The position numbers and the translations under genes are program-made. Under the pieces are notes generated by a model that was not told where the DNA came from, made no database searches, and saw only the letters and a list, made by a program, of their open reading frames with translations. Positions 17,605 through 48,537 of a DNA stretch of 64,000 nt are shown piece after piece. Origin of the DNA: Perna viridis (lineage: Eukaryota); contig CM074518.1 of the NCBI GenBank assembly GCA_037379345.1, positions 744,001-808,000 on the forward strand, given 5' to 3'. Within the stretch, counting starts at the first letter, position 1. Each line of letters begins with the position of its first letter.

Positions 17605-17722
17605 CTGACCATTGTATAATGGGGAATGTTCAATGTCACAAACTATGGTACAGGTTCTACTAACCATTGTATAATGGGGAATGTTCAATGTCACAAACTA
17701 TGGTACTGGTTCTACTGACCAT
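17605..17722. repeat. 55-bp tandem duplication
   Basis: ACCATTGTATAATGGGGAATGTTCAATG... at 17608 and 17663. Confidence 0.9.
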
Positions 17723-20920: not shown

Positions 20921-20955
20921 ACTACACAAGTTATTTACTACACATATTAGGAACA
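20921..20955 (+). CDS. Candidate 35-nt micro-exon of the + strand gene (LHKLFTTHIRN, last base A joins TG of the next exon to make ATG)
   Basis: Strong acceptor TTGTCTCTTTTTTCAG and donor GTAAGT. The frame that joins exon 21084 is open. It may be coding or 5' UTR. Confidence 0.5.
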
Positions 20956-21083
20956 GTAAGTCTTAAAAACATTAGTGTTTGTGTCAAAGTTCAAATTATC
21001 CTTTAGTATTGTAACATTTCCACAAATTCATAATAGCAGCTTTGAGCTATTTTATGATTTTCATTTTTTTTTTAATTTTGCAG

Positions 21084-21170
21084 TGAAATTTGGATTATGG
21101 AAGAAACTACCTCGAACATCACATGAAGCTGAACGAAAAGGTTATCACAGAGTTAATGATATTTGTAAAA
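21084..21170 (+). CDS. Exon of uncharacterised extracellular protein (KFGLWKKLPRTSHEAERKGYHRVNDICK)
   Basis: TTTTGCAG acceptor and GTGAGT donor; phase 1/1; joins 33157 in frame. Confidence 0.8.
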
Positions 21171-21256
21171 GTGAGTACCTTTACATTAAATTTTGTGGAT
21201 ATCTAATGGGCAAACCAATACAACATATACAAGTACAAAACCCATCCGAACCAACA

Positions 21257-21470
21257 CCTCATATCAGTAACCAGTATATGTACCTTCATATCAGTAACTA
21301 GTACATGTACCTTCATATCAGTAATTAGTACACGCACCTTCATATCAGTAACTAGTACATGCACCTTCATATCAGTAACTAGTACATGTACCTTCATATC
21401 AGTAACTAGTACACACACCTTCATATCAGTAACTAGTACATGTACCTTCATATCAGTAACTAGTACATGC
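21257..21470. repeat. 27-bp minisatellite (ACCTTCATATCAGTAACTAGTACATGT)
   Basis: About 8 copies; source of the spurious VLVTDMKVH ORF. Confidence 0.9.
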
Positions 21471-21499
21471 ATGTACTGTTGACATATATGACATATGTC

Positions 21500-21808
21500 A
21501 TATGACAGTTCAGACATGTGGCACTGTACATGACTCATATGACAGTTCAGACGTGGTGCACTGTACACGACTAGTATGACAGTTCAGACGTGTGGCACTG
21601 TACATGACTTGTATGACAGTTCAGACGCGGTGCACTGTACATGACTTGTATGACAGTTCAGACGTGGTGCACTGTACATGACTCATATGACAGTTCAGAC
21701 GCAGTGCACTGTACATGACTCGTATGACAGTTCAGACGCGTGGCACTGTACATGACTTGTACGTCAGTTCAGATGTGTGGCATTGTACATGACTTATATG
21801 ACAGTTCT
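21500..21808. repeat. ~37-bp minisatellite (TATGACAGTTCAGACGTGGTGCACTGTACATGACTCG)
   Basis: About 8 copies. Confidence 0.9.
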
Positions 21809-23357
21809 AAATTGATGATATTCTACAGAAATCAAGAACAGACCAATATCATCAATGATAAGTTCCCCTCAAAGTACTGACAAAACTTTCAATTCTAAAA
21901 CTAGACTTACAAAGAGTATTCATGGCAGATTGTAAATAATTCCCTCATTATCAGTGGTCAATAAGCTGTAACTTAGTAATGACATCATAATTAACAAATA
22001 ATTGGACAGTTATAACAACAATACCTTTAATGTATCAAATCATGCCTGTCTAAAACAGTCATGCCAAGCAGGTACATGTATCTAATAACTCAGGTCTAAG
22101 AGTACCTGCCACAGACTTATCTTTAGTACACTGGCTAGATCTGGGTTCATGCCAAGCGGTTACATGTATCTTAAATCATTCTGGTCTAACCACAAACTAA
22201 TCTATAGTTTGGTGACTTTAACAGACAAATCATAGAAATTATCTTGAAAAAACTCAGACACACAAAATATAACTGGTAAATATATTCTACATCTGTTGGA
22301 GCTGTATAAAGAAAGCAAACAATGTTATCTGTCCCAGGGGTGTGTTAAGATTGAGATAGACTATATTATGACATTGACTGACATAGTTAAAGACACAGAT
22401 CTGTCTGAATGAGAGACGCTGTCATTCCTCACACCAAACTAATGCAAGGCAAAATATTTTAAGTGCTGTTACAATTTTTAGAAAGATTTTTTTCACAAAA
22501 CATTTTCATTTAAGAGTTTGTAAGAATGTAAGAATGATAAAAAAAAAAAATTTGTTGAAATAACAATTCTGTAAAACACAAACATGATTTTTTTTTACGA
22601 GCCTGTGATAATAAGTAAGTAAGTTTACAGTTGCTTCTATCACTTCTGTGGATAGCAAATAACTTTTACCCAAATTTACAACATTCACTCAAAGAGTACC
22701 ACCAACCAATGCATTGATTTTCTAACGGTACTAAATATTATTATGATAGGAGGCGATGCTAAAATAATGATCATAAAATGGTATAATGATACACATTATC
22801 GTTATCAATACCTGCAAAAACCCATATAGACTTTCTATTGGCAATAATTAACACAATTAAATCGGTTTTTCATAATCAGAGAAATCAATGATTAGTTCAG
22901 AAAGTGGTAAATGCTTCATTATCAGGTTAATGTACTGCAAAGCTTTAATATCATACTTCATATAAAATTTTACATTTTTTCATTGGTTAACAAAGATGAA
23001 TTATTCTGGTATACCACCCACTTGAACCGAAAATTTGTTTTATCCTTTCTGTTTCGTTGTCCATTTTTCATACTTTCACCGCAATCAAAGATATCACACA
23101 ATGTATAATTTGTTAAATAAAAATGAGTAAAAAAAAATGAAGAAAAAAATATGTGATAATAAGGGTGCAAAGAAGACACAACAATTGTACAAAGAGGAGT
23201 GAGGTTGTTCTGTACAAAGAGAAGTAAGGTTGTTCTGCACAAGGTGGAGTGAGGTTGCACCATTGTCATAACAATGAACTAATGCAAAAAAAAAAACATT
23301 AATGTTCATATTATGTATATATTTGTCTGTGTATAGGACAATGTTTATTTGGTGCAA

Positions 23358-23478
23358 ATATTCATATCCTAATGGCCCTTCACCTTCAGTGAAGTTGTAA
23401 GTATTCATATCCTAATGGCCCTACACCTTTAGTGAAGTTGTAAATATTTATATCCTAACGGCCCTTCACCTTCAGTGT
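23358..23478. repeat. 43-bp tandem repeat, ~3 copies
   Basis: ATTCATATCCTAATGGCCCTTCACCTTCAGTG repeated. Confidence 0.85.
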
Positions 23479-26400
23479 GTCTACTGTTGTAAAATAATAA
23501 TAATGATAATAAAATCTTTATTTCAAGAGGGTTACACAATTAGTTTACAAGCTAATCTTGCCTGAGGCCCTCACACACAATCAGCCTATAACCCAGTGTA
23601 AAACCCAGTCTACAACTAATCAGCCTTATGATAACCCAGTGTAATAAAACCCAGTCTACAACTAATCAGCCTTATGATAACCCAGTGTAATTTTTTCACA
23701 GTGAAACCCTGAAAATTTGTCTAAACAAGATATATTTTAAAGTCTCTTTATCTCATTAAAAACGCATAATTCTGAATATTGGTAATTCAAATACCTGACT
23801 TATAAAGAAACCAATTTTAAAGTCCAAAAGAGGTTCTATTTAGACAGTGTTTACTGTGGTATAAGTACATTTAAAGAGTGTTAATTTCTTGTACATCCTT
23901 TCAGCAGTACATGCCAAATACATTACATCATCTGTATTTGATATTAGGGGATTTCTTGTAAAACAATTAAATTTCTGTAATCCTTTTTAATGGATTCCTT
24001 TTTCAATGGCTTACTTCTTACTATTAAAATCTCAAAAACATATGTGGACTAATTGGAATTAATGAATAAAATAACATCTGGAAGCTTTGATATGAGGGCG
24101 GAATTAAAATTTCAAAAACAGAAGAAACCAGCTTCTGATGGCCCCGAGGGAAAAGATTTGAAGGAGAGATTTCTCCAATTAATATCTCTCCCTGACCAAA
24201 CTAATAATAAGCATTAGCCATTTAACATGAAAAAAATGTCAAACGGTTGTCACAAAAGGCTAATATTAAACAACATTATGCAAATTAGTTCCGATGATCA
24301 TGTGACTGGGAACAGAAAATGAGGTCTAACTGTGACATCTAATTGAACATGATATTGCACAATTTTTATTGAGAGCTAAAATCAAACAAATGGACAATTT
24401 TTAACATCTGGTAACATAAAACTGGTTCCCTGTCAAAATAAGATCCACTATTATAAACTATACCATTGAGCAAGGCTCGTCTCAACAACTGTAGTAGTGT
24501 AAAATACTTTTCTAAAATAGACTTCCTGAAAAGGGAAAAAAATAATAATGGGTCTATATAACAGACAAGGCAGGCTCTTTAATAACTTTGTAACAGAAAA
24601 CCTAAATAAAACTCATTGAAATACCATTGTCAGAATAGTACATGTGCACATCTAAAACCCCCTCATATAACAAAGAAAATAAAATTCTGCTGATCAATAA
24701 AGATATCAAAAGTAAAACCACGCTTTTCAAATTGTGTATAAAAATTATCTTCTGAATAATTTCTGCATTCAAAATGTAATTTGTTCTCTTTTTGATCAAG
24801 TAAGCCTTAAAAGATCTAAAAATAATTGTGATATGAAACTTTGTCAAAGACAGAAATATGAAATTGAGGATGAAAAAGTATCTTCATTAGCCTTCAAACA
24901 CAATCAGCTCCAATAGACCATGTGACATAATAGGATTATATCAAGGCTTTTGATCTCCGACAAAACGTGAGGCACAGATATTTTCCTATTAAGGACTTGA
25001 TGTTTTCATCACAACAATACAAATTTGCATACAATAAAAATGACTAAAAACCTGCCATATGACAGAAGAAAATATGAAGGATCTGACTGTGTAATGTGTT
25101 TCCTAGCATGCATCAGAGTAATTGGGATACATCTCTTGTCTTAATGAAATTATAATTTTCCCCACTGACAGAGGTATTTAAGTTTAGTTTTTTGTGGAAT
25201 TCATATTTAGATATTTCATCCATTTCTCATATTGAAAAAATGAACAGATGTACTCAGAGATGAGAATATTCAAAACTGATTAGTTGCAATAAATTGTGAA
25301 TGCACTTGCTCTCACTCTGGTTTGGATAACATGCATGAATTCACAAGGTACACATCAGGACAGTACAACTATTACAGGGTCACCAAATACTAAATGAAAG
25401 TCAATGTAGTTCCCAATAAAAATGGCCATACTCTCAGTCTGAGATTCAATGATACCACCTAAATACCAAGCAAATCAGGATAATTGAAAGATAAAAACTG
25501 ATTACACTAATTAATTCATCTATTTATTTCTCTTAAAATATGACCATGAAGTAAGAATCAATGGATGGATTATGACAATGATTAAATGGACAAGGCAAAG
25601 AATAGTCTCATTAATCAATACACAGCACTCACTCCTGAGTCAGTTGGTTCTTTCACCTGCAATCTCTAAAGAATTCAACTGAAAAAAATTGTCTCATTCA
25701 TACAGACACCTGGAAAAACCAGGTATAAAATCATCTATCAGAAACTGGAGACTTGCGCCTGTCATCAATATCTGTAGTTAGAGATTAGCACAGATTTTTA
25801 CTGTTAGTTAAATAGGTTCCTGCTTGGAGATTAGAAGCTATCACAATGCACTGTAGCGTTGTAAACCCTCCCCTCTGATTAACGAATAATATACAACTTT
25901 ATGGGAAGCCTATTGTAAAAAAGAAATGATGCATAAAAGTAAATTTATTCTAAATTAGGTATAAATCGTTAAATAATGAATTAATTGGTGCCAACTTTCA
26001 GAATTGACAATAACTACAGAACTTTCACATTTCAGCTTTAAAGGTTCACCTAGAGCAGAAGTAACCATTTATATAGAAACATGCGACTCTTGTAAAATCG
26101 TCATAATGAAATTCAATATAAAGTTGTTTCTATAAACTAAGGTGGTGATTAACAAATTAAAATTTTTCAAATGAGGAAATTATCTGTATAGGGAAAGTTT
26201 TTCTATTAGGCTTCATGTCTGAAACTGAATTAAATTTTGTATGCTGTCAGTAGTAGCAGAATAAGCAGAGAATAGTTGATGAAATTCCCAAAGGCTTATT
26301 CAAGTATAATGCTACATTTGAAGCAACTGTTTGATTTCAGTAGAAATGATCAAATAAACAGGCTTCAAATTGTGCTGATTTATTATTACTTAAAACACAC

Positions 26401-26646
26401 TACCTTACACATAGCTTACATCTCTACAGTATAGCATTAACCACACAAAATTCTATTAAAAAATTGTACTTTTGAAGTGATTTTTTTTTATATGTAATAA
26501 AAATAAAAAGTCATAATGTTTTGTTGAAACCACTATTCTAAAACTGGTAAAAAAACAAAAAGGTAAATACATGATCTCTAAACTGATGTGTCAAACTTAC
26601 TTTTCAGCAAGCCTAATTAAAACTTCATATAAACCCCAGAAATATC

Positions 26647-26905
26647 ATAGACTGTACATTCACCCACATTCATAACAGACTGTGCATTCACCCACATTCA
26701 TAACAGACTGTACATACACCCTTCATTATAATAGACTGTCCATACACCCATCTTTATAATAGACTGTACATACACCATTCTTTATGATAGACTGTACATA
26801 CACCCATCATTACAACAGACTGTACATACACCAATCTTTGTAATAGACTGTACATACACTCATCTTTATAATAAACTGTACATAACCCCATATTTATAAC
26901 AGACT
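26647..26905. repeat. ~28-bp minisatellite (AGACTGTACATACACCCATC...)
   Basis: About 9 diverged copies. Confidence 0.85.
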
Positions 26906-28915
26906 AAACGGCACATATTGGTCAAGTACTGAAGAATAGCCAAGTTCAGACCTACTTGGGCTAAACAAACTTAATGATAACATGGTCATATCAGTAATAC
27001 TGTTACTAAGAAAACTCCAGGAACTTATAGATTATAGAAAACAACTTTCACAGAAATACCTTACATAACATTGATACAGACAACAAGTCAACCATGTCTG
27101 GTAAAGGTTAATAAGTATAGTGTCAGGTATAACAACAGTCAGGGTTGCTGGGTGCAGGGATTAAACATATTATTTTATATGTCACAGTATAAATCATTAG
27201 TCTATGTCAACATTGTAATCATTACTCTAAAATAGATCAGACATTTGCTTTCAAAACATTATGTGTTTTCAATAATTTAACTTTTATCCAAAAAAAAATA
27301 AAATAAAATGTAATAAAATACATGTCTATAGAGACTTCATCCCTTTAATCAAAGCTCAGCTCATCCACATTTCTTCCCTGCATATATATAGGTGGTTTGT
27401 TCATCACCAACAAACAAGAAACAATCCAGCCTAATTAGCACAGAAATAATGTAGAAACCATTTATCTTCACAATTTTGTTTAAATCATTACAAGTGTCTG
27501 AAATCCATTAAAGAAAGATGAAAAACCATACGTTGTGCAACATCTGCAGGGGTGGTGCACTCCGACCCTTTAAAAACGCATATAATTATGTTGTAACATT
27601 AGAAATGTACAAACTGAGCCATGCCAAACTTTGATGGCATCTTCTAAGTTTTAATGAGGCATGACATACTCTATAGAAAACATCTAAATAAACAATATCT
27701 CCATGGAACAGATGTCGAATTCATTTACACTTTTTTTTCTAAAACATAGGCGCTTTGACTGTATCTATGAATTTTGTGCTGACTGCTGGACCAGAGCTGA
27801 CTGACTGCGCCTTGACTATATGGATCTGTCATTTCTGACCAACGTCAATGGTTTTAATCAAAAACAAAATTAGAGTCTTCTAAGCTATGGTGTGCCATAA
27901 ACCTTTCATATCAATATTATAAATGATTCCCTCCCAAACAAATCTGTTAACAGTTATCTTTTACAAGCCTGTAACAGTCAGATCAGAAGCTTTTATTGGA
28001 TACTGGACATGGGCTATTCTACTGAGTAAATTGACCATCCCATTTAACCATTATTATTGATGGCCATCTGTAGAATCATGAAGCAGGTTTTAAGGGCATT
28101 CTGTGAAATCTTTTTTTATTGGAATGGTTTTGTGGAATGATGTACAAATGTAATTACAGAACTGGAGGCCAGACACTTAATATTGGCCAGACCAATGCCT
28201 TTCATCTGTTCACTGTTTAGATATGCATGCATGATGAAATTAACTTCATATCTTAAAGACTTCATAGATTTGTACAGATTGCCACTATAAAATATAAGGG
28301 ATCAAAAAGTCCTACCATACTTCAGAGTATGCCATTTTGAATGGTCAACATCTGTATAATAAATGACCCCTACTGAATATGTTATATGGTCCATGCTGTG
28401 ATTAAATGAGTGATTTCTTCCTTGTGAGTCTATTAATTCAGAATAAATCACAGTTTTTCTCCTCTTTTCTGTTCATTATTTTAATGACCACACCAAACTG
28501 ATTATCTCCTAGTATAAACTAATCAATCATTAATCATAGTTTTGATAACAAATCAATTGATTATAGTAAGTTTATAGTCTATTAATTATGGTCAGATGTG
28601 AAAGATATTTATTTAGCAACCTTCAATTCTTAAAGACTTTTTAGTTTAAGAAAGCCCCCCCCCCCAAAAAAAAAAAAAACCTTTTAATTTCTCATAAATA
28701 TTAAAGAAACTATCAAGTTTCAAACTGTATAAGAATCAGGCAAAGGGTGGCACATCATTAGTCTCATTTTGGTCTTTCTTGCCTCAAATATATTCAACAT
28801 ACCTAGAAAACAACCAAAAAGCTATTCAGAAATGTGACAGATATCTTTTGACTGCTTATATAGGGGAAAGGTGAGGGATAATTGTCAATACCTTGATAAA
28901 CATGACCAACACTTT

Positions 28916-29075
28916 GATGGTTATTTCTGGAGGCTATGAGGTATTTACTCAGATGATGGTTATTTCTGGAGGCTAGGAGGTATTTACTCAGATGATGGTT
29001 ATTTCTGGAAGCTATGAGGTATTTACTCAGATGATGGTTATTTCTGGAGGCTAGGAGGTATTTACTCAGATGATG
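28916..29075. repeat. 39-bp tandem repeat x4
   Basis: GATGGTTATTTCTGGAGGCTA(T/G)GAGGTATTTACTCAGAT. Confidence 0.9.
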
Positions 29076-31954
29076 TACTTCTTCATGTGATTTATAAACA
29101 ATTTGCCTGATTCTTAGAAAAAGAAGTACTTAAAATGTTACACATCAAGAAAATTTCATTCTGCAAAAAAAATTTAAAGTGGAAACAATATCCTCCCTCT
29201 ATTCAGGAAATTATTTGTATCCAATTAGAGTTTTAGCTATTGTCTGCCAAGGAATAGTGACACATTATAATAGAAAGAGGAAATAAAGGAAAAAACCATG
29301 TTAAAACACAATGACTGAATATAATTACATGAAAGTGATGATAGTTTTAATCTAACCTTCTCCATTGTCATCCAGAGATATGAATTAAATCGTTGACTTC
29401 GAGGGCTTCTTCTCTTAATTAACGACCTCCTATCACAATGCTTGCATCAGAATAAAAAAAATGCAGTGGACCATCAAAGCAGGAATGTTTTTGACAGACA
29501 AAATAATGTTTTAATTATGCTGGAGACCTATTAAAAAGAGGAAAACTCAACTCAAGTACAGTTGATAATTAAACCTAAAGTGTCTCAGATTCTAATTTAT
29601 CTATATCCTATTATCCAAAATAATATACTAAGATGACCAATTGATTTTTTTTTAAGCCAATAATTTACTGATTTACTGGTACAAAGTGAATCACTGTTTT
29701 TGTTTTATATAAAAAATGGTTTTACAAAATGTGAAGCCTAATATTCCTTACCAACCAATTTATCCAAAGACTGAATTCTGAGGGCTGAGTTGATGCTTTG
29801 TCAGAGAAATACTTTAATTCTTATTTATTCATTTTGCAGTTGATAGTAATGATTCAATTTGCTTATATTTACCTGATATTTACTAACAATTAAAGACTTG
29901 GCATTTTTTCTTACATTTCATCAGATAAAAGTAAATAGTTCAAAATTTCATTGACAAAAACAGATGAAACAAGAGAACAGGCTGAAACTCAATGAAACCT
30001 GATAAGGGTAGAGTTAATAGAATTCAACCACATAACTCGTCATTAAAACCATTATAACAATTCCATAGAAGACCAAACTAAGAACTTCTCCTGCTTCCAT
30101 TGTCTCCTGATACTGCATGCCAACCGTGCGATGACAGACTTGCTGACAAATGGATCCCACGTCTAATGGGCTGTGTTCTATTGTGAAATGGACTTATTTG
30201 ATCTGAGTTACTGTTGATTAAATCTCCTTTGTTCTCAGGAAAAAGATGGAATCCAATGTTAAAATTTTGACACTGATCCAATGAAATAAAGCTTTTGCAA
30301 TGATAACCAGGAAATCTTCAATTTATACAAATGCAATTTTTAGGAAAGATTTTGTGAATTTATTCAATATTTGTTCTTTTAGAGTAAATTAAGTGATTTA
30401 AGAACCTTTTGTAAAGATATCAAATAAATATAATTTCCAATTGACAGATTCTCAAGAGTCAATTTACTCAACAGAAGTTTGTATTGTGGAATAACTATTT
30501 TGGAATACATTATATCAGCATTGAATTTCCATTTAATTTTTCACAATAACAATTTACTTAACGTTATTTATCTATTATTTGTTATGTATAAATAATTTGA
30601 TCTCCATAAACCTAACAGCTCTTTATAATAATTGTAACTGCACCATAAGAAAAACCAAATTACTGAATATTTTTGGATGTCAAAATTAACACTAATTTGA
30701 TCCATACCTTAGAAATAGAAATCGTAAAACTTATTCCCTTATGAAACAGGTGTCATAAGAAACAAATTAGGTCTGAAAAAATAAATATTGACTTTCTTCT
30801 ATCAAGATATAATACCAGAACTTCAGCAATTTACTAATTGCAGCTATCAAGCCATAAAATATCCTTGCTGATTTTTTTCTTTATTTACTCAGGCAAAGCA
30901 ATCAGAATGAATCATGTTTCCTATTGTTTTAATTTCTATACATTTTAAGATTTAGTTTTATATTGTTTGTTTTGAAAGCTATCCCACATGATCATGTATT
31001 CATTCTGAAAACTTATCTAATGGAATAAATCAATAAAAATTGTTACAATTCTCTGTTTTATGGAAATCTTTAAATTCTTTTAAATGGCATAATCCCATCA
31101 ATAAGAGTGTTTGTAACCATGAAGTGTCATCATTATACCTGTCTCATACCTGCCTGTATGGTAATGATATTGTGTATAGCTACCGTGACTCATAATGCAC
31201 GTGAAAATTATTAAGAAAGATTTGACATTTGGTCTCAAAAGGCGATAACTTTTATGTACCAGTCTGTTTGCCTTCATGCATGCATTATGTTAGATTAAAA
31301 ATAGCTTTATTTTTCTTTTGAAGATAATTAAAAAATGAAAAACAAGATTACATGGCTTAAGTCCATCAATAAATAGAAAACAAATGGATCCTATAAATCA
31401 ATATAATGGCACTCAGAATTTTTATTGATTCTAAAACATTCATACATGTTCTTTTCAAAAGACAGATTTGAGAAAATAACACAGTTTAAAACATTTCATT
31501 ACAACAGTTATGAATTCCAAAGCTTTTAATAAAACAGCGCCCATAAAGATGACAGATTACTATAGGAAAACAGGTCCAAGACAGGATATGTATGTAGGTT
31601 GTGATTCTTAATTTAATCTAGTTTATAGAAATACATGTACTATTTTAAGGTTCTATACTCATAACACGATGCCATTGCTCGTCCAAACTGCCTACAGCTA
31701 TCATAGAACAAAAACCTAGTACAATAAAGTATAGATGAAGATCCCATGGGGGTCTACCGAAGATTGATATAGATGAACAATATTGATAAAGATGACAGAT
31801 TGGCTGTAAAATATTGAGACAAGTACTGTCTTAGGTAGTCAATTGTCCATAAAAAGTAAACCATGTTTTCACAGGTTTCAAAGTCTGAACACGTATACAG
31901 ATTTTTTTGTGCTAGGCAATTGTGAAGGATGACCAGCTTATAAAAAGGAAATGC

Positions 31955-32430
31955 TTCTTCTCCCCTTGTGTATGGCAGGAGTCCTCTTTTTCCCCTTGTG
32001 TACTTCCTTCACTGGTGTTTGGAAGGAGTCTTCTTTCTCCCCTTGTGCTTGGCAGGAGTCTTCTTTCTCCCCTTGTGTATAGCAGGAGTCTTCATTCTTC
32101 ACTAGTGTTTGGAAGGAGTCTTCTTTCTCCCCTTGTGCTTGGCAGGAGTCTCCTTTCTTCACTAGTGTTTGGAAGGCATTTCTTTCTACCCTTGTACTTG
32201 GCAGGAGTCTTCATTTCTTCACTAGTGTTTGGAAGGAGTCTTCTTTCTCCCCTTGTGCTTGGCAGGAGTCTTCTTTCTCCCCTTGTGCTTGACAGGAGTC
32301 TTCATTCTTCACTGGTGTTTGGAAGGAGTTTCTTTCTCCCATTGTGTTTGGCAGGAGTATTCAGTCTTCATTAGTGTTTGGAAGGAGTTTTGGAAGGAGT
32401 CTTCTTTCTCCCATTGTGCATGGCAAGGGT
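31955..32430. repeat. 33-bp minisatellite (GGCAGGAGTCTTCTTTCTCCCCTTGTGCTT...)
   Basis: About 14 copies with two alternating variants. Confidence 0.9.
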
Positions 32431-33156
32431 AGTCTGATCTTGACACAGAAAGCTCACTGTACATTACAATACCAATCTGTGAGCCTGACAGTATGAAATG
32501 ATTTTACTCAGATAATATGCTATAGAGTCACCATCAACTGTCATAGGATATCCCAATGCCATGTCTGGCAATAAGTAAAAAAATGACTTTCTGATTCATC
32601 CACTGATGGCTTGTAATCAGATAAATACATTATGGAAATCTGAGGAAAATTTCTCTGCATCCTTAGAGATTTTCACTATGACTTACATATGAAAATTGTC
32701 GGAGACTCTATCTAACGAGCCAATACATGGACTTTCTCTTCCTGTATCTATAAGACACGCTGGTATCATTACTATAGACAAATGTATAGTAATCTCATCC
32801 TATGAAATCATTATACGTAGAGAGACATTTAAATTACTATAGTGGACAGTATATGGTACTACAATGCTAATTCTACCCTAGAGAAAGATTTCTAAATTAC
32901 TTTATTTGGATAAAACTTGCATGGAATCAATGTTGATTTATAAAGCATGTAAATTCACTCCATAAAAATTAACTTGAAGATAAATCTGTCTGCACTAGAA
33001 ATTCATGAACCCTTACAATTAGAAACTTAAGGACTAAATGATCAAACAAAAACATTAATCTTTATCCTAATGATTGTATACAGTTTTAGAACCAAGCTTT
33101 CTGAAAAGGGGGCAATGTTGCAGCTGTAATTACAATTTCTTTGTCTTGTATTTCAG

Positions 33157-33254
33157 CTGACAGGTATCATGGATTCCTATACAGGAGACAAGGAGATACC
33201 AAAGATATTCCAATTTATGATTCTAATGGCTGGATAGCTGGTATACAGGCTATG
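33157..33254 (+). CDS. Exon (T-DRYHGFLYRRQGDTKDIPIYDSNGWIAGIQAM)
   Basis: TTGTATTTCAG acceptor and ATG|GTAAGT donor; phase 1/0, consistent with both neighbouring exons. Confidence 0.85.
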
Positions 33255-33627
33255 GTAAGTCAGCTTTGGTCTGGATAGCTGGTATACAGACCATGGTAAG
33301 TCAGCTTTGGTCTGGATAGCTGGTATACAGGCCATGGTAAGTCAGCTTTGGTCTGGATAGCTGGTATACAGGCCATGGTAAGTCAGCTTTGGTCTGGATA
33401 GCTGGTATACAGGCCATGGTAAGTCAGCTTTGGTCTGGATAGCTGGTATACAGGCCATGGTAAGTCAGCTTTGGTCTGGATAGCTGATATACAGGCCATG
33501 GTAAGTCAGCTTTGGTCTGGATAGCTGGTATACAGACCATGGTAAGTCAGCTTTGGTCTACAGGCCATGGTAAGTCAGCTTTGGTCTGGGTAGCTGGTAT
33601 ACAGGCTATGGTAAGTCAGCTTTGGTC
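33230..33627 (+). repeat. 41-bp minisatellite made from the exon 3' end + 5' splice site (CTGGATAGCTGGTATACAGGCCATG|GTAAGTCAGCTTTGGT), 10 donors
   Basis: GTAAGT at 33255, 33296, 33337, 33378, 33419, 33460, 33501, 33542, 33570 and 33611. Confidence 0.95.
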
Positions 33628-36600: not shown

Positions 36601-39349
36601 GCTATTATAGATAAAATCTAGCTACTGTTGACCAAGATAGGTCAAAGGTTAAATTATTCATTTATATTACACCCAGTAGTGCATGATAGATATATGGGTT
36701 AGCATATGTAAAAAAAAATCATCTCTCTTAATGAGACTTACTCAAACTGTTGATTAATTTTAAATGGAAGCTTATGCCTACTTTAACATTATTTCAAAGG
36801 TTATTTTTATTCTATCATTTCTGTTTCAAGAGGAGTTACAACAAATTAAAAAAAAAAACACTGAGGCAAAAACTTAAAAGACTATTAATCAAAATACTAA
36901 AGAAGAACATAAGAATATAAGGTTACATGTTTGGGCCCCAGGGTTGAGTCTCCATAACTTGATACATAAAAAATTGACAAACTGATGTCCTCAATATGGT
37001 ATAATAGGGGCAAAATTATCTAAATCTGATTAGGAGTACATTTGTAAAGTCAATATCAACATTGGTAATGTTAAATAATGAAGAGTTTATCACCAAATAA
37101 AACATTTTTTCAGGCTTTCAGCAAGTTTTATTTTAATGCTGTCTGAATTTACAGGAAGTGTCATTTCTAAAAAAAAAAATTTCCTAGAGCACAAATATTT
37201 GTGACTATTTTTGTTTATATCAGTAAGACTTAAGCAGACAGGAACTGAGCCAAGATGATGGCAGAAAATTGTGATCTAAAACTGTCAACAGGAAACAGTC
37301 AAAACTTAAAAAAATCATTTCTCCCACAGCAGTGCCAATAGTCAAAACTTAAAATCATTACTCCCTACCAATCTTTACAAACCAGAGGTTCAACAGTTGT
37401 ACACAAGTTGTTTTAAAATATTTAGAAGTCTTACTTATGAAAAAGTGAAAGGCTTGAGAAAAAAACAAGACAAATGAACAATTATTTTATGATTTCTCTT
37501 AAAAGTAAAAGCAAAAATCAAAAGAGAATGATAAAAAATCCTAAGATAGAATTGTACTTTGTCTAAAAGCTGCCTCTAATTGGAAGCAATATCCCATCAT
37601 AAGCCATCGATTTTTTCCTCCTTTTGTTGTATAAGATATAAATAACATAGACATTGCTAGTATTTAATACAAGACTTAACAATTCAATATACAAAATAAT
37701 ATCACTGCCTCTAGCTTCTTAAGTTTGATGTATGGAAGTTCCATTATTGTTTGAGCTAGGGAAAGGATGTTCTAAATTAATCCTCACAACTGGCTTAGTA
37801 TTGCTCTAAAAATGAATAGAAAGTGAAACTATTGTTTAATTAATAAGGCAGCTAACTAAACCATAGTCATTCTTCATCATGACTTTTGCTTACCAAATTA
37901 TTAACTGTACAAATTGCCAGCTACTAGTATATATGGACATTTTATAACTGAGCCTGAGTGACAACATATATAACTCCATTTAAGCAAACTCCAGCAAACT
38001 TGTAGTCAATCTTTCTAAGATGTTCTCAGACCAATATCAAGCTAGCAATAAATAAGAAAGAGAAGCCAGGAAAAACCGTGATTTAAACAGTAACAGTTGA
38101 AAATAAGTTCCGTGATCATATCACTCAAGACAGATCATTGAAAGAACCACTGCTATCAATATCTGCAGAAAGTTTATCAAAATCCTCATTGTCGTAATTA
38201 AGCAAAGAAGAAAACTGGTAATCAAATGGAGAAATCTTAATGAATATCTGTTGCATGCAGTAAACTGCTAACAATCAACTTAGATAAAATATGGTTTAAA
38301 ACAAAAGCTGGTAATTTGCTCATTGATTTCTGTACAGCCATGATACACTGTGTTCACTACATGCAATGGTGGATAGAAGTTACAAAATTAAATGAAAACC
38401 AATTCTAACACTTTAAAATATCATTCTGTCAATTTGCACTGCAATTCTAACAGATTTTAGATGCAGTGTTTTGAACCCTCAGAGAAATAAAGTAAAAGTA
38501 TATTCACTTCAATAAAATCAATCTATCTGATTTAGGTGTCAATTAATTCAGATATTGCCCTATACAAGTAATACATGTAATGGACTTCAGTGTAAATATT
38601 TTTAAGCTTTGTAAATTGAAAATGTCAGAACAATTAATCCATTTTACTCTCTCTTGTTCTAGGACCATTTTATTCAGTATTGTTTCTGATTTATGGACAG
38701 TCAGGTGACAAAGTATTGTAAAGTCTATAGCATGTGGGAAAATGTTGATGAAAACTTTGTACTTTAAAATATAGGTAAAATAAATGTTTGATGAAACAAG
38801 ATATTATATCAAATCCTAACCTTGTTTTTTTTTTTTTTAATTCTTGAAGTTTGTGTTTTTGAATCAATAGACTGAGGGAGAATATATTTATGACTGTTTA
38901 GAATGAAATAGAATCATTTCTCTCATTAACCATGGATTAAAAGATAAAAAGTCCAGAAGCATACATCTCATATTTTGACAAATCATCAATTTTCATTACA
39001 AACATGCCAGCAGTATAGTAAATGATGCATAGTTATGTTCCATAGGCTTTCTATTGCACAACCTCACACATTTAATCATGGTGAAAGCTATGGAAATCCA
39101 TTATAAACCCTCCATGGATCCATCAATAAAATATATGTCAGAACATTAAGCAGTGTTTTACAGGTCTCCTGAGACAGAGAAATCAAACTTCGACCTTTTG
39201 CAGATATTTTACATAAAAAAATTAATACCTATAAATTCCACCTTTTTTTATCATCCATTGACGTACTGCTTTAATCATCATTAGTAACTGTTATCATTTA
39301 ACTTGTGATATGAAACAGAAAAAATGTCAATTCAGTCACACAAAAATCT

Positions 39350-39728
39350 GTTTTTACCTTCCATAGTGGCCTCTAAGTCAATTTTTACCTTTAATAGTGG
39401 CCTCTCAGTCAATTTTTATCTTTGACAGTGGTCTCTCAGTCATGTTTGACTTTTGATAGTGGCTTCTCAGTCAATTTTTACCTTTGATAGTGGTCTCTCA
39501 GTCAAGTTTGACCTTTGATAGTGGCTTCTCAGTCAATGTTTACCTTTGGTAGTGGCTTCTCAGTCAATTTTTATCTTTGATAGTGGTCTCTCAGTCAAGT
39601 TTGACCTTTGATAGTGGCTTCTCAGTCAATGTTTACCTTTGGTAGTGGCTTCTCAGTCAATTTTTACCTGTGACAGTGGTCTCTCAGTCAAGTTTGACCT
39701 TTAATAGTGGCCTCTCAGTCAATTTTTA
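39350..39728. repeat. 30-bp minisatellite (TTTACCTTTGATAGTGGCTTCTCAGTCAAT)
   Basis: About 12 copies. Confidence 0.9.
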
Positions 39729-39934
39729 CTTGTACATTTGAGTAAGAATTCAATGTTAAGCATCTATAGTACACATCTCATAGATTTCTACTAGTATACA
39801 CAATGATAAGTTGTATTGTTTACATCAGTAACTGCAGCATAGTTCTTGTAATGACAATAAATACCAAGAAGATAAATATTCCTGAAACAATCTGGTGAAT
39901 TGACCAAATCAATATATTATAATGTGTCTTTCAG

Positions 39935-40064
39935 ATTCCTGCATATATGAAGGGATTTAACTCATTAAACCAGACAATAACTTTACCACCATATGAGATT
40001 ATGCCCCCTGTTTTAACTGGATACGACCCTGAGGAACCTGGAAGAACATTTTATACAATAACAG
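39935..40064 (+). CDS. Exon (IPAYMKGFNSLNQTITLPPYEIMPPVLTGYDPEEPGRTFYTIT)
   Basis: GTCTTTCAG acceptor and CAG|GTATAC donor; phase 0/1; open frame. Confidence 0.8.
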
Positions 40065-40350
40065 GTATACTTAAAAATAGAATAATTAACTAAATGAATC
40101 AAGCACACTGCCGTGTCTGTCCAAGGTACACACAGTTTCCTGATATTAGGAACATAAGATTTTATATTTGTTAGAAGGATCAAAGCTACAATCCTAAGGG
40201 TTACATATCTCATCATTGTTAGTATGGGTAGCAGATAAAATTAAAGTCTATAAATACATTTTTTATAGTCACAAATATCAAAGGTGTTTCAATCACCAAC
40301 AATATTGGTCATAGGCATTGCTTCAAATATATGTTTTTTTTCTATTTTAG

Positions 40351-40527
40351 CATATTTCAAACATCCAAAATTGGTTTGTAATCCTATAGCTGTGCATCAC
40401 ATACACCCAGGTAAAGGACTTTATATACAGATGGGGCCAAACCCAGTGACAACTAGTATATCTATACCATTGGAATCAAAGGATCTTGGTCCAATGTGGG
40501 TACAAGGCACCTGTGTCCCAAGAATGG
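40351..40527 (+). CDS. Exon (A-YFKHPKLVCNPIAVHHIHPGKGLYIQMGPNPVTTSISIPLESKDLGPMWVQGTCVPRM)
   Basis: TTTTTCTATTTTAG acceptor and G|GTAAGT donor; phase 1/1. Confidence 0.88.
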
Positions 40528-43500
40528 GTAAGTCAATTCAATTCTTCCTCAAAATCAAATTAGGGCAAATATTTATGGGTAAAGATGCCATAGGAAATAA
40601 TCTTATCAAAACTGAAGGTATTTACCTTCTAAGAAATAACAAGATCTGCTAAATGTATGTACTCCATCTTGACTACATGAGATAAATAACACCTTTTGGA
40701 TTTTGTTTGGTTAAGAAAAAGTTAAAAATTCATTTGACTTGATAAAGCGTTTAGATAAGACAAGTTTTTGGATTATTCAGGGTTGGGTTTATGCAGGTTT
40801 CAATATATTTCTTAGAAGATGAAATTGCATGTTCATTTCAATTTAAAATTTAACATTAATACATGTATGAAAATGATCACAATAAATGTCACGGTTTTAA
40901 TATGAACCCAATCAGTGGTTAGATTCCCTGAACTTAATTTTGCTTTAAATATTTAAATATATCAACTCCTGACAGATTAAAACAACTATCAGGAAGTCTC
41001 CTAGTCTTTCATGCTGAGAAAACATATGGTAAAGAAAACTTATCTTTGCTGTGTTTAAATTATGTGTCAAATACAGTTAAAATGTTTCTATGTCCATGTT
41101 CAATGGTAATTTCAGTGATGTATGTCAAATGGAGAACAGTCTTTAAACTGAAGAGCAGAAAATTGTTATCCATGTCACTGCAGGTGCTCAGCAGGGCTGC
41201 CCATTATGTCCTTTGTTGTTCAATGAATATAATGATATTGACTTTTTCTGGATTTCCATGATAGGATATTTTTACCTTTTATGTTACTCTGTTCAGATCA
41301 GGCAGAAGTAAACTGTAATTATTATTGTGTACTAACAGCTTAGATCACAGAATCTACAATGAAGCTGTAGATGACAGCTGTGATCTATCAATGGGAAATG
41401 AAGGTCGGATCATTTTTGTATTAAAATAACTTTGTTAATATTTTTACAAATAACTTCAAAAAGTATTGAACAAAGGGAGTTTTATCATTCAATACCCAGT
41501 CACAGAAATCATCAAATAAGTAATAACCATACAATTTACATGTCTTCCTCAATTCTTTATTTCAATGCAAGTATGAGTATATAGTCCACACAATGAAATA
41601 AATCAGGTGTATCAGACTAATTATGTAAATTAAACATTAAATCATTAGATGTGTAACACAAAATGATCTTTCTGAACAGCTTTAGGGTAACATTGAAATT
41701 ACAAAAGAAAAGTTTAATCATCATCCATCAACTGCGGGGGGGAAAAAAAGAATCCATGCTATAATTAAATTTTAAAAAGAAACCTATTTGCTAGCAGGTT
41801 TGATCTGTTTCTTTGTTTTAACACAGCCCATATTTTGTGAATCCATGATGATGCTAAGGGAAATGATTACAGAATATCTACAGATTTAAAGATTAATCTA
41901 TGCTGAAACGATGTATGATCATAGGTGTTGCGTTTGATAATCCTTGAAATGTCCAGTATCACAAAATAAAATATCAGTTTGTCATGACAGTAAATCACAT
42001 ATTAAAATAATCTCTCCTTAAAACCAAAACAATACAATGGTAACCCCCTAATGAAAGGACAATATGAAATGCCAAGTTAACATCAAAAACGACCACTTGG
42101 CATCAAGTAGACAGAGACAAATCTGTTGACGATGTCAAATATAATTTACAAACTGATTGAGGTGGTCACTTTACACAAATTGATTCAAACTTTCAAATAG
42201 AACAAAAAGTTTTATAAATGTGCCCTTAAAACATAAGAGTCATTGAAAATAATGATATAAATGATATGAATCGATTCCATTGGTGACTTAATAACAGTTA
42301 TTAGAGCCAATAGCACCTTATAAAGCATTCACAAGATTTCAGAACCAATGAAAAACTGGATGAGATATCAATTACAAATCATACAGCTGCCATTAGGATT
42401 TTTAAAAGTCATCTTTTACACGGTCCTTCATACATGGCCTTAAATTAATTAGTTCCATCTAATTACTACGCAGCCATCTGCCTTACACGGCAAAGTGATA
42501 TAGTAAGTGACAATTCATTGAATGTACCCCAGCCTTCATCACAATGCTCTGGTCAAACTGAGTATAAAAGGCTTTTCCCATTAACCATGTCATCTTGTCA
42601 ATTCTTATAAAATCAAATGTTTCTAAAGACTTGAACACATGAAAGTTTTCAGAAATTAGGTCATATTTTATATATTTATCATATACTGGTATGGTAATTC
42701 CTTTTTTGTAAATTTAATTGCTATCTTATTAACAAACTATAAGTTAATTGAATCATCATTAATAGACCAAAAAATCAAACCTTCTCAAACATTTACATTC
42801 ACTGAACTAGGAAAGCTTAAAGTCAGCAGAAATTCCTCAACAATGTAACTTCTGATTTTTTCAATTACCTAAATTCACAATAAAAAATCATTAGTTGTAC
42901 CTGCCTAACAAGCCACCATAAAGTAATAATACCAGATAATGACTGTGTACCAGTCAGGTTAATGTCTTATATCATTCACCATGATAATCTAATGTAAAGA
43001 AAAATATCAATACCCAAAACCAGTAATATTCTTACTTTAATGTTGGATGGTAATGAATTTTAATATTTTATGAAGCTAATTAGTCCAAAAAGCAATTAAA
43101 CATCATCATCAAGATTTACCTTATCAGTGGAGAGGAATCCCTGTAGGTTAAAGTCATCATTCTGAAGCAAGATTAAATGAGTTTTGGAAGGCAAGATTGT
43201 AAAACAATATCCAAGAATGAACATGGATGGAAGTTACAACACACAATATCATATTTATCAGGTGTTCGTAGTACTGTCCTGTTTCCTGAATGTTTACTAA
43301 AAAAGTAAAATATATAATAATTTAAAACTTGTTAGGTACACCAAGTAAGGAATTTGCTTCAACTTATAATAAATTTATACCTGAAAGAATATTTAGTAAA
43401 ACAGTATAACAATGTGTATCATTTCATTCTGTTTTGAACAAGAGCAATTGGCACGGGCAATTGCCTTGAACAACCTCATAAAAAGGTCAGTAGGAAATAA

Positions 43501-43534
43501 ATTGTCTTGTAGGGACCTAGTAATGGGTAAAGCA

Positions 43535-43647
43535 AGTACCACTGACATGGTAGGTGCTGTATCAACCACAGGAATGGTTGGTGCTGTATCAACCACAGAC
43601 ATTGCTGGTGCTGTATCAACCACAGGAATGGTTGGTGCTGTATCAAT
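43535..43647. repeat. 27-bp tandem repeat x4 (GGTGCTGTATCAACCACAGGAATGGTT)
   Basis: Direct repeat; source of three spurious ORFs. Confidence 0.85.
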
Positions 43648-46197
43648 AATTTTTGATGGTACAGCATGCTGTACCTAACATTCTTGTAAAAAAAAATTAA
43701 AGGGGTATTTTACTCGGTAATTAATTAAGGCAAGTTCAAACCAATGTGTTAGTAACTTCTGCCATATCAAACTTTGGGAGCTACACCTCTGTTTTGCAAT
43801 CATGAAATAAGATGTGTATTATTTTCTGAGGTATCTTCAACTTTTGACTCATCTGAAATCAATCACCAATAAACCAAAGTAAAATTAGTAAAGAATCTAC
43901 ACCTGAGCCTTGCACATTATTGCCCCTAAGTTTCTCCTAATCTTACTGGGGGACAATAAAGGGAGCTAAATCCTTCATTAATGATAGAAACAAGAAGGAT
44001 TACTTTTAACAATATATGGAAGATTATCTGTTTATTTGAAACATTATCACCGACAATATCACCCCCAATATTTTTTTCATGACAACATACCCCCAATAAT
44101 TTTGTAGTAAAATCTCCCACTTTTATAACTGTACTTAAAATTTTCAGTTTTTTTATTCCTGCATAGAAAATTAGATGTAGCTTAAGATTTAGTAAACTGT
44201 CATATTTTATGACATCTTGGTTATACTTTTACATATGTCTACTGATAATCCTATTGTTTATTATGCTGTCATTTTTATCATAAAATTCTCAATGATTCTG
44301 AGATTTATGTTACTAATTCCTCTCTGGCAATAAAGTCCATCCCTTTAGTCTTCAACAAAAATCATAAAACCAAAGCTTATTATCCATAAAAGATCAGCAG
44401 TAAAATAAATCTCTTCAGTATAAAATTCAGATTACAGAAAAAGACATTAAAAATATCTAGAATTTCCCATATATTGAGACAAGAAAAGTTCTTAAGAGAT
44501 CAGAACCTAATCATTTTCTCAATAATATCTTACTTTTACAACCACATAACAAAAGATTGAAGTTCTTTACATATGAAAGGATCGGTTGGTAATCATCATC
44601 TGATGAAGGTTTTGGTCTATATGTCTTCATCAATATGTAATAAGCATCTTAATGACACTGATGACTCACCCAGAGTTCATTTTTTTCAATAAACTTTCTA
44701 AGAAAAGTCTAATTAGTCACGGTGTAATTCTAGGCTAAGAGTACATATTGTTTTATTTCCTTTTTTGTAATCTAAGTCAAGTCAATGCTCAACATAAGAC
44801 ACCTAATGACAAGAACTGACTATTTGTCAATTTACTAGCCTCATTCTCAGCAAATTAAATTGACTAATTAGTAATAGTCATTAGTGTTAAATGGTTTTAC
44901 TAAACTTTTCTAAATATGAACAGAAATAATTACCATAAAACTCTAAGTCCTGTAATACATGTATCATCTAGATTTTGTTAGTATTTTAAATACTTGATCA
45001 GATAATTTTCTTGTGTCTAATGCAATAATACTTTACAAAATATTCAGCCAAAAATTGAGGCCAAATAGCAACTATTATGCTTTATAATGACAGTAAAGTT
45101 TAGACAATGATCACTAGAATTAAATTATAAGATATAGTGTAGCCCAGAAGCCTACCTAAGAGGGGATATTGAGAATGTTTATCAATGTATAATATCATTC
45201 TCAATCCTTTGAAGTTGGTATCTCATTATTTTATAGAATCTCAAATCATGACAATAAACCCATTACAGGAGGTTTTGTCACCAATAATTCAGAAAGAAAA
45301 CTTAGCCTAATCGCAGTTTTCAGAGTAATTTCAATAAATTCATTGTTTTTCATATATAATTCATGTAACTACTAAGAAATAGAAGACATGGAGCTTATTT
45401 CCCACAGGCCAATACCATAAATCATGATTTCTTGCAATACTGGGTCTAGATTAAACTCTTTTTCAACCTATTTATCATCAATGCAAAATGTCTCAGAAAA
45501 CTGAATTCTCAGGAATTACCAACATTACTTCATGCACAGCATACATAATTTTTCAATATTTCATAAGAACATATCTGTCTCATATTGAATGTATATACAC
45601 CAGAGACACTCCATTACATAATATGATCCTCCTATAAAGTGTTGGATTCATCAAATAAGTTACAGGATATGTTTTTTGTTTTACTGGCAAAGGGACACAC
45701 TTTCCAGACATTTCCTTCTATTAAACTTTTCATTGGTTTCTTCCTCATCTTTTCCAAACATAATTCTCTCATAAATACAAAATATTCATGAGGACTTTTA
45801 AGAGGTCTAAGTATCAGTCTCAGCCAGCACACTTTGAACATATATGTCATCGATATACAAGTAGATGAGAAATTCAGACAATAAAAATAAATGTCATCAA
45901 ACAAAATACAAAATGTACATATGTTCAGTGTTATATTGAATCAAATGCTTTGTGGGAAATCTCCCTATTTATGAAGTCCAAAAAATGAGACATATATAAC
46001 AATTGAAAATGGAGCTAACACCAATAGAAATAAACTATGTGTGTATTTTCTAAAGTTTTGTAAAAGTGGGTGCAACTACTATTACCGTAAGTTAGAGTCG
46101 GAAAACTGTAAAATTCCTCTTAATGTCTGGCCACAGATTAATAGAAAGAGACAATTCATCCACATTTCACTAAAACTGTTGGCAGCATTATTGACTT

Positions 46198-46373
46198 ACT
46201 TTGAAAGTACTACTGTTCATTGGGTACAAATTTTCATGGTTATCAACTAAAAGGAGATTTCCACTGATGTGTATACTGAAAACCTCAGAACCACAAATTC
46301 AAGAATCCTCGAATTTGTGTTTCTTCCATAATCCACGAAAATTGGTATCCATGAATTAAAGTACTTTCACAGT
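46198..46373. mobile_element. Degenerate MITE-like element (ACTTTGAAAGTAC ... GTACTTTCACAGT)
   Basis: 13-bp imperfect terminal inverted repeat; subterminal CCACGAAAATTGGTATCCA motif. Confidence 0.5.
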
Positions 46374-46518
46374 GAAAAGTGTGAGTGATGGATAGATGGA
46401 CTGACAGACACAAGTATACCATAATATGTACCATCTAAAAAGACAGGCGTATATAAAAGAAAATCATATACTCTACTTAAAATTTTCTTTACATCAATTC
46501 TTGCTTTTTTTCCCATAG

Positions 46519-46697
46519 GTACACACTATTTTTACAATCTGTCAAGAGAATTACCGTGTGAGAAAATTTATCCAGTTTTCCTAATGTATGACTCTGAAGG
46601 TAAACTGGGTGCATTTGGTTGGTCATTCCAGGGATTTGCCTTAGACATGAGTGGATCAGATTTACCCTGGTTCAATTTAAAACCAGAGACATATCAG
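46519..46697 (+). CDS. Exon (G-THYFYNLSRELPCEKIYPVFLMYDSEGKLGAFGWSFQGFALDMSGSDLPWFNLKPETYQ)
   Basis: TTTTTTTCCCATAG acceptor and CAG|GTAAGC donor; phase 1/0. Completes the C-V-P-x-M-G-x-H-Y motif across the intron. Confidence 0.88.
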
Positions 46698-46737
46698 GTA
46701 AGCTAGAGAAGTAAAATTATTCTAAATTGGGGACAGT

Positions 46738-47113
46738 AACAAAGAGTTTACTAGGGCTATGTTTGGGGTAGAAACAAAGAGTTTACTAGGGCTATGTTAG
46801 TGACAAAAGCAAAGAGTTTACTAGGGCTATGTTAGTGACAAAAGCAAAGAGTTTACTAGGGCTACTTGACAATAGAAACAAAGAGTTTACAAGGGCTATG
46901 TTGGTGACAGTTACAAAGAGTTTACTAGGGCAACGTTGGCGATAGAAACAAAGAGTTTAATAGGGCAATATTGGCAATAGAAACAAAGAGTTTACTAGGG
47001 CTATGTTAGCGATAGAAACAAAGAGTTTACTAAGGCAATGTCAACAACAGTATCAAAGAGTTTACTACCACAAGGGCTATGTTGCCAATAGAAACTAAGA
47101 GTTTACTAGGGCA
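46738..47113. repeat. 35-bp minisatellite (AACAAAGAGTTTACTAGGGCTATGTT...)
   Basis: About 11 copies starting 40 nt after the exon donor. Confidence 0.9.
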
Positions 47114-47470
47114 ATAAATATTTTGTTAATTTTTTATCATTTATCTTTTATCTATATAACCATTCATTGTTTTATTATATGACCAAACATTCAATTGAGG
47201 ATTTTTCTGTTTATGGTAAGTCAATTCTCATTAAAAACTTGATAGACTAATTGAATCGAGATTGTTTAAACTTCACTGGTAAAAACATCAACAAAATAAA
47301 CTACATCCTTGTCATCATCAGTGGAAAACATTATTTTTAAGTCTGATCTTTGAGAAAAACTGAACAAAAATTAGTTTTAATCTTTTGTCAGGGTAATATG
47401 TCATTATATTAATTTTTTGATTCACCTGTTCAATGAGAAATTCCCTTTATATTTTTTTTTTTGGTTTTAG

Positions 47471-47773
47471 TTCACCTTCGACACTAGCAAGTTACCTCCA
47501 TGTATGTTCAATGAGAAATTTGAAGTGTTTGGTATACATATATGGTTAAAGGACCCAGACTCTGAGACAATGTTGTGTAAAATTGTCAGCAAACCAGAAG
47601 AAAAGCCATTTACAACTAGAGCACCACCAAAAGTGACTTATAAAACTGGCTATAGAAACCAACAAATTATCACAGCCAATAAGAATAGAAACAATCGTAA
47701 CAGCTTTAATTTGTCTTTAATTATTTTGTTGATTTTAACAAACTTAATTTCCAGAAGGTATTTTAATCTATGA
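47471..47773 (+). CDS. Last coding exon (FTFDTSKLPPCMFNEKFEVFGIHIWLKDPD...FNLSLIILLILTNLISRRYFNL*), hydrophobic C-terminal tail
   Basis: T-rich TTTTAG acceptor; phase 0; 100 codons then TGA. AATAAA candidates at ~48136, ~48251 and ~48334. Confidence 0.85.
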   Translation, partial: FTFDTSKLPPCMFNEKFEVFGIHIWLKDPDSETMLCKIVSKPEEKPFTTRAPPKVTYKTGYRNQQIITANKNRNNRNSFNLSLIILLILTNLISRRYFNL

Positions 47774-48380
47774 CCATACTACAGTTGAAATACATTGTTT
47801 TCTTATTTTCCTTTGTCTTCATTGTTATACTTTCATTATTATTAGAAAATGGGGGAAGGGTTAAATATATTCTTACTGAAAGAGCTATGTTTATGGTATT
47901 TATCAGAATTTGTTATGATTACCAACTTTTATTATAGATGTTATAACTTATTCATTTATTGTATACAAATACAGTATGTTTTCATTTTCTAATGATGACT
48001 TTGATTGTTTGCAAGTGAAGGGGCAGCAACTCTAAATGCTCTCATCAACTTTAATTTGCATTTAGAGTGGCCTCCCCTTCAATTTCCATAGTGAGAGGTA
48101 TCATTTTTGTCAAACTTAACTTAATTGGCTAATTACAATAAATTTTAATTGATTTCTTAAACAAATTTCCAAATTTTTCACCAAGAAAGATTCAAGTGAA
48201 GAATCAAACTGTAACTAAAGAATCTATACCAACTGTCAGTTTTAGAATTTAATAAACCTCTTTCTTTTAAATTTATTCTCACAATGAGCATCAGTTCAAC
48301 TGCAGAAATATCTGTATTGTCAGGAAAAGATAAATAAATAAATCCTAGTTCATAAAGTAATTATATGTCTAAAAGACTGA

Positions 48381-48537
48381 GACTTTCTTATTCACTCCAT
48401 CGGAAGGATGAATTGGCTTAGACTTTCTTATTCACTCCATTGGATGGATAAATTGGCTGAGACTTTCTTATTCACTCCATTGGATGGGTGAATTGGCTGA
48501 GACTTTTTCATTCACTCCATTGGATGGGTGAATTGAC
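48381..48537. repeat. 40-bp tandem repeat x4
   Basis: GACTTTCTTATTCACTCCAT at 48381, 48421, 48461 and 48501. Confidence 0.9.

Follow-up and report, generated by a model that had tools for sequence, protein, structure and literature searches.

The window analysed here is a 64,000-nucleotide stretch of the Perna viridis genome (GenBank assembly GCA_037379345.1, contig CM074518.1, positions 744,001 to 808,000 of the forward strand), and the subject of this analysis is the gene that occupies its middle part and encodes an internally duplicated protein with a hydrophobic C-terminal tail. The locus is a real spliced gene with seven coding exons and a predicted product of 355 residues. Six of these exons lie in the window, while the first is located upstream in the same genome.

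The gene and its transcript

Positions are those of the window, except for exon 1, which carries the genome and contig handle.

Coding exon 1, G000:C8:720194-720287, outside the window: 94 coding nucleotides, predicted signal peptide
Coding exon 2, 21084..21170, + strand: phase 1 to 1; start of repeat 1 with the first Cys; joint 21170-33157 in 4/4 runs
Coding exon 3, 33157..33254, + strand: phase 1 to 0; core strands of repeat 1, His65
Coding exon 4, 39935..40064, + strand: phase 0 to 1; long loop specific to the mollusc clade, NQT sequon
Coding exon 5, 40351..40527, + strand: phase 1 to 1; end of repeat 1 (His141, Cys146) and start of repeat 2 (Cys191, Met195)
Coding exon 6, 46519..46697, + strand: phase 1 to 0; His198, NLS sequon, Cys209, and Phe247-Asn248 in place of the family Glu-His
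Last coding exon (seventh), 47471..47773, + strand: Cys266, His278, Cys291, stalk, hydrophobic tail, stop
3' untranslated region, 47774..50397, + strand: contig cover up to 49000, where the compared stretch ends, and beyond; the end at about 50397 is estimated from the X5 contig (3696 letters, letter 768 at 47469)

The exons between 21084 and 47773 have AG/GT ends and agreeing phases and comprise 324 codons, in which the only stop is the terminal one. This confirms the preliminary description of the locus, which had proposed six GT-AG exons and a stop-free product of about 324 residues. The motifs quoted there are all found on the + strand of the window, some of them interrupted by splice joints. 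All five introns between these exons are bridged exactly by contigs of all four sequencing runs, which come from four studies and were taken to be RNA by guess, none of them being recorded as such. It is the splice joints that demonstrate transcripts of the gene. The earlier placement of the gene start at 20921 is not supported; coding within the window begins at 21084. The 35-nucleotide candidate exon 20921-20955 keeps the frame open, but it does not resemble the N-termini of the orthologues and no contig joins it to 21084.

The signal-peptide exon, which the preliminary description had not located, is indeed absent from the window but exists 23.7 kb upstream of it. It was found in the same genome by using the closest orthologue (G000:C8:720194-720298, 89% identity over 35 residues), and its position implies that intron 1 spans approximately 44.8 kb. 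The phase-1 donor of exon 1 joins exon 2 in frame, which yields the 355-residue protein with a hydrophobic N-terminus; residues 1-19, all derived from exon 1, have the hydropathy expected of a signal peptide. The junction between exons 1 and 2 is suggested by orthologue continuity, by phase and by 98-168 additional 5' letters in the contigs.

Several repeats accompany the gene. A 41-bp tandem array (33230..33627, + strand) copies the last codons of exon 3 together with the donor site and contains ten GTAAGT copies between 33255 and 33611, of which six of the nine downstream copies are out of frame. Contigs of the four runs use only the first copy, although contigs drop rare splice forms. A 40-bp array is present in the 3' untranslated region (48377-48539), and minisatellites with periods of 19-72 are abundant (1845-19587, 21259-21807, 46727-47114 and 51835-53022), several of them directly 3' of exons. 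In each of the four runs, the contig depth adds up to very high values over two stretches listed as intronic, 45816-46606 and 28689-29135, which are probably dispersed repeats that are present in many other transcripts.

A duplicated domain and its family

The 355-residue protein contains six cysteines (C59, C146, C191, C209, C266 and C291), N-glycosylation sequons at residues 105, 202 and 335, with NQT and NLS among the motifs present, and a stalk rich in Lys, Asn, Thr, Pro and Arg that leads into the hydrophobic C-terminal tail, in agreement with what had been read from the window exons before. The two-fold internal repeat is likewise borne out: when the family alignment is split in two, HHalign matches one half to the other with 91.3% over 103 columns, compared to at most 0.73% in 20 column shuffles, these half-versus-half values being single comparisons without a structure term. 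The AlphaFold2 model of the closest orthologue, P0002, calculated with 119 sequences, reached a mean predicted local distance difference test score (pLDDT) of 84.8 and a predicted template modelling score of 0.77, and its confidence is low in the stalk only; with six sequences the pLDDT was 38.4. In this model, a similar series of strands is predicted for each half, followed by a disordered stalk and terminal helices.

Structure comparison provided no close relative. Foldseek returned no match at E<=0.001 in the PDB and viral libraries, and VIA-align no structural match at Z>=5. The top structure in VIA-align was TTHB210 (PDB 3VG8), which aligned with repeat 2 only (Z 3.8, root-mean-square deviation 5.3, 82 aligned positions; in a second run Z 4.2, 4.9 and 82). 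These values place the modelled repeat within the common-fold range and constitute a weak link. LolA/ependymin-like sheets matched weakly with Z<=2.9, and no cytochrome or DOMON fold was found among the Foldseek and VIA-align matches.

The nearest named protein is Mytilus LOC143082289 (XP_076114026.1), which is annotated as 'uncharacterized' and is 76.7% identical over 352 positions, while P0002 shows 80.7% identity over 353 positions. Further orthologues are found in scallops, oysters, clams, unionids and many gastropods. Because orthologues in Mytilus and other molluscs are already annotated, the gene is not hidden, contrary to the preliminary description. A profile built from six clade sequences and searched against 1.84 billion representatives matched 452 clusters at E<=0.001, many of them across both repeats; the best 150 of the 452 matches were listed and 119 sequences were aligned. 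Named relatives include sequences from Branchiostoma, Strigamia, ticks, Elysia, Magallana, Actinostola and Stygamoeba. The proposed assignment to an uncharacterised invertebrate family therefore holds for the first attribute but not for the second, given the Stygamoeba member. The window protein belongs to this family by its profile match over both repeats, its six cysteines, the MGxH motif and the final His, but it lacks the Glu-His-Pro that is typical of repeat 2 and reads Phe-Asn-Leu instead.

Searches for a family name were negative throughout. Pfam gave nothing above cut-off for five window frames or six orthologues, no Pfam family was matched by more than one of the 119 aligned members, and none of the 119 matched an NCBIfam model. 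The eukaryotic family profile (alignment A2) found nothing below E 0.9 among PDB sequences, and the ESM Atlas returned unnamed clusters only, of which an Actinomycetota cluster at 0.89 is a lead only. In the literature outside subscription journals and supplements, no paper was found that deals with the family or its repeat, with the variant seen in molluscs or with the prokaryotic link discussed below.

In a FastTree phylogeny of 139 sequences (two of 141 rows were left out for gaps), the window protein groups with 33 relatives in a single clade that has a support of 1.0 and a long stem. Long tails are present in 34/35 clade sequences and all 34 are hydrophobic; the remaining one, whose tail is 21 residues long, does not enter the tail counts. 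Outside the clade, 94/106 relatives end no more than 10 residues past the last Cys, and a hydrophobic tail is seen in only 3/106. The mollusc clade has probably acquired both the stalk and the hydrophobic tail. The three relatives with a hydrophobic tail outside the mollusc clade are P0056, P0067 and P0085, which suggests that a tether was gained more than once. The Perna genome itself contains four typical tail-less paralogues, clustered at G000:C3:23605890-23741292 (L008-L011). They keep the GxHYW, EHP and TxH motifs intact, and the exon boundaries that follow MG and precede the last exon resemble those of the window gene. In summary, the window gene is an ordinary orthologue of annotated uncharacterised proteins and is best regarded as a probably tethered, site-eroded variant of an annotated but undescribed family.

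Tether, pocket and possible function

The C-terminus of the window protein contains an uncharged run of 18 residues, and only seven residues follow the hydrophobic window, which leaves no cytosolic domain, as is characteristic for the tail of a glycosylphosphatidylinositol (GPI) anchored protein. By a rough pattern, omega-like triplets precede the tail in 26/34 clade tails compared to 13/86 stalk windows. A membrane tether is likely on sequence grounds, and GPI, which had been proposed before, would be its more probable form, with considerable room for doubt. Two observations speak against GPI: by the same rough pattern, no omega-like triplet is present in the window protein or in its two closest orthologues, P0001 and P0002, and several gastropod tails extend 19-76 residues past the hydrophobic stretch, are long and basic, and in this are like the tails of transmembrane proteins.

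The candidate ligand pocket is located in repeat 2. Among the 106 relatives outside the clade, Met195 is conserved in 99, His198 in 104, Glu247 in 103, His248 in 74 and His278 in 103, whereas repeat 1 has Arg and Thr in place of the first and last His. In the 34 members of the mollusc clade, Met195 is found in 34, His198 in 32, His248 in 8 and His278 in 21, and Glu247 in none; His278 is replaced by Arg in 12/34 and His198 by Leu in 2/34. The window protein has Met195, His198, Phe247, Asn248 and His278. His141 is present in 34/34 clade members versus 6/106 others. Residue type and conservation suggest that the conserved residues of repeat 2 form one metal site in the family. The earlier proposal that the histidines of the window protein could form a metal or ligand site is consistent with the conservation of His198 and His278, but the Glu-His pair that belongs to the putative site in the family is gone.

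These data can be combined into a tentative scheme. The family may have originated by duplication of a single β-sheet domain, after which only repeat 2 would have retained the ligand-like residues (Met195, His198, Glu247, His248, His278). As only this repeat keeps them, the tail-less relatives are probably secreted metalloproteins. In one mollusc copy, a tether would have been gained, the Glu and mostly the next His lost and a new His141 fixed, changes by which a site that was probably catalytic may have come to serve binding only. The loss of two pocket residues in the mollusc branch suggests that the protein is a binding protein and not an enzyme: it would be held at the outer cell surface, probably by GPI, with a repeat-2 pocket that binds a metal ion or small ligand without catalysis. 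Copper or another soft metal would be a fitting partner for the Met/His/His set left in the mussel protein, by analogy with the His2-Met site of peptidylglycine monooxygenase. We assign a probability of about 0.4 to this reading, in which a secreted putative metalloprotein acquired a tether, lost Glu-His and became a surface protein that binds a metal ion or small ligand. The clade data also weigh against it, because the loss of the Glu-His pair weakens the full metal site, and because the replacement of His278 by Arg and of His198 by Leu leaves no metal site common to the whole clade.

The same substitutions are compatible with a metal-independent surface receptor or adhesion protein in which the pocket is a relic and the long loop, His65, His141 and the glycans bind protein or glycan. 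The loss of Glu in 34/34 and of His278 in 13/34 clade members, the long stem and the newly fixed residues would fit such a change of function, and a stalk combined with an anchor would be a receptor-like layout. However, Met195 and His198 are kept as strictly in the clade as in the family, although possibly for structural reasons; a purely receptor-like role appears less probable than the tethered binder, if still a serious contender. It is also conceivable that the protein is anchored at the surface as an active metalloenzyme whose site was rebuilt from Met195, His198, His278 and perhaps His141 or His65, and that it acts on a small-molecule substrate in mucus or seawater. A His2-Met site can serve catalysis in copper monooxygenases and His141 is invariant in the clade, yet by the repeat alignment His141 falls in the other repeat, the most conserved acid of the family is gone and His278 is Arg in 12/34. 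Metalloenzyme-like pockets have been predicted for TTHB210-like proteins in the one preprint found on them (10.64898/2026.10.18.759936), but on balance a rebuilt enzyme is improbable. Even less can be said in favour of a heme-binding surface protein with axial ligation by Met and His. Both residues are conserved, and weak matches to LolA/ependymin-like sheets exist. Ligation of heme by Met and His is known from the cytochrome domains of cellobiose dehydrogenase, but Met195 and His198 are only three residues apart on one strand end, and the cytochrome and DOMON folds are missing from the structure matches; this is the least probable of the four explanations. The tethered binder is the most probable of them, though at less than even odds.

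Prokaryotic look-alikes and known systems

The motif pattern of repeat 2 occurs in at least 120 prokaryotic stretches; those listed include 45 in-frame open reading frames (ORFs), of which 36 belong to one unnamed single-domain family. The members of this family are mostly signal-bearing and derive from actinomycetes, acidobacteria and a haloarchaeon. The MGxHY family (L014-L132, L137-L191; alignment A3) was matched in 21/251 and 38/301 genomes of two phyla. It shares features with the repeats that were not part of the search pattern, namely an upstream A..GY..C, a later LHxW and a terminal Cys, and among 50 members the first His is present in 47, Glu in 32, the second His in 45 and Met in 35. 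No Pfam or NCBIfam model matched above cut-off, and PDB sequences gave nothing below E 0.25 for the A3 profile. The 81 neighbouring ORFs, surveyed without a control, showed no common context; they include single SCO1, YHYH, nickel-responsive and cupin genes as well as two di-haem peroxidases on one contig.

A first prokaryotic set matched repeat 2 with 85% and repeat 1 with 33% in HHalign. As the family was found with the repeat-2 motif, the match to repeat 2 is not independent. A second set of 50 loci, which was gathered with the profile of the first family and so carries the first selection, matched repeat 2 with 93.2% over 52 columns (at most 0.71% in 12 shuffles) and repeat 1 with 14%; this set excludes two unpublished genomes, two loci that the profile already contained and two that overlapped. 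Three prokaryotic sequences (L187, L189, L190) combine the layout of the MGxH family with the GHPGV.EPHY signature of TTHB210-like proteins. They match A3 with 98.8% and the TTHB210 profile with 79.7%, whereas the direct match between the repeats and the TTHB210 profile amounts to only 3.6-5.9%. Three DUF1264 sequences match the prokaryotic family with 81% over 49 columns. Further results speak against the link. When the seven motif columns were masked, the match to repeat 2 fell from 85% to 0.3%, while that to repeat 1 stayed at 30%, compared to at most 8.3% in shuffles. The eukaryotic profile A2 matched in 0/301 actinomycete genomes, and the MGxH His is Leu in 118/121 TTHB210-like proteins. 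In addition, a repeat-2 hidden Markov model reached a best E of 0.15 over 1687 ORFs of the prokaryotic loci, and PF18197 matched none of the 119 family members at E<=0.1 and nothing in an exon-wise search of the mussel genome. The sequence links from the repeats via the prokaryotic family to TTHB210 are suggestive, a lead rather than a result.

For two TTHB210-like proteins and one DUF1264 protein, metal sites that may be binuclear have been predicted, and the 3VG8 structure is described as free of metal (10.64898/2026.10.18.759936). The TTHB210 gene (L012:38296-40735, Thermus plasmid pTT27) adjoins genes for an extracytoplasmic function (ECF) sigma factor, an anti-sigma factor and a ferritin-like protein, with a di-heme protein and an iron ATP-binding cassette (ABC) transporter encoded nearby. 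It is possible, with the odds somewhat against it, that the window family, the prokaryotic MGxHY family, TTHB210/DUF5602 and DUF1264 constitute one undescribed metal-binding superfamily found in all domains of life. The eukaryotic proteins would then represent the fused two-domain form with one working site, and the mollusc copy a pseudo-enzyme, tethered to the surface, for sensing or capturing a metal or small molecule.

Elsewhere in the window, broken reverse-transcriptase (LINE-like) frames lie downstream of the gene on the - strand (54656-57744, 60094-61188 and 62788-63723), and RVT_1 matches were obtained in four of the eight frames scanned there.

There is nothing unusual about the gene model, which has predicted counterparts in related mussels, and it is the family that matters: hundreds of secreted eukaryotic proteins share a conserved Met/His/Glu/His/His set and have neither a Pfam entry nor a solved relative. 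The prokaryotic look-alike is small and easy to express. Moreover, one and the same mussel genome encodes the intact form, as four paralogues, together with the tethered and eroded one, and this natural pair lends itself to a search for the activity. Should copper or another metal bind at the site, the family would be relevant to how molluscs handle metals at their surfaces, and a shared, testable chemistry would become available for several families whose function is unknown.

Compared to known systems, the Mytilus protein LOC143082289 and the bivalve and gastropod orthologues are like the window protein in architecture, in the six cysteines and in their place in the clade; they differ by species only, and the source listings give them no function or family name. 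The secreted two-repeat family of about 270 residues has the same repeat, Cys pattern, MGxH and final His and is approximately 31-32% identical to the window protein, but it keeps Glu-His-Pro and is mostly tail-less. The prokaryotic MGxHY proteins resemble a single repeat in the order A..GY..C..MGxHY..P..L.Y..L..E..LHxW..C, but unlike repeat 2 they carry the Glu on a different strand, and they consist of one domain. DUF1264/OBAP (PF06884) matches neither repeat directly (0.2% and 0.7%). The TTHB210-like proteins (DUF5602, PF18197; PDB 3VG8), finally, provide the best structural match to repeat 2, but in contrast to the window family they lack the MGxH His and carry other histidines.

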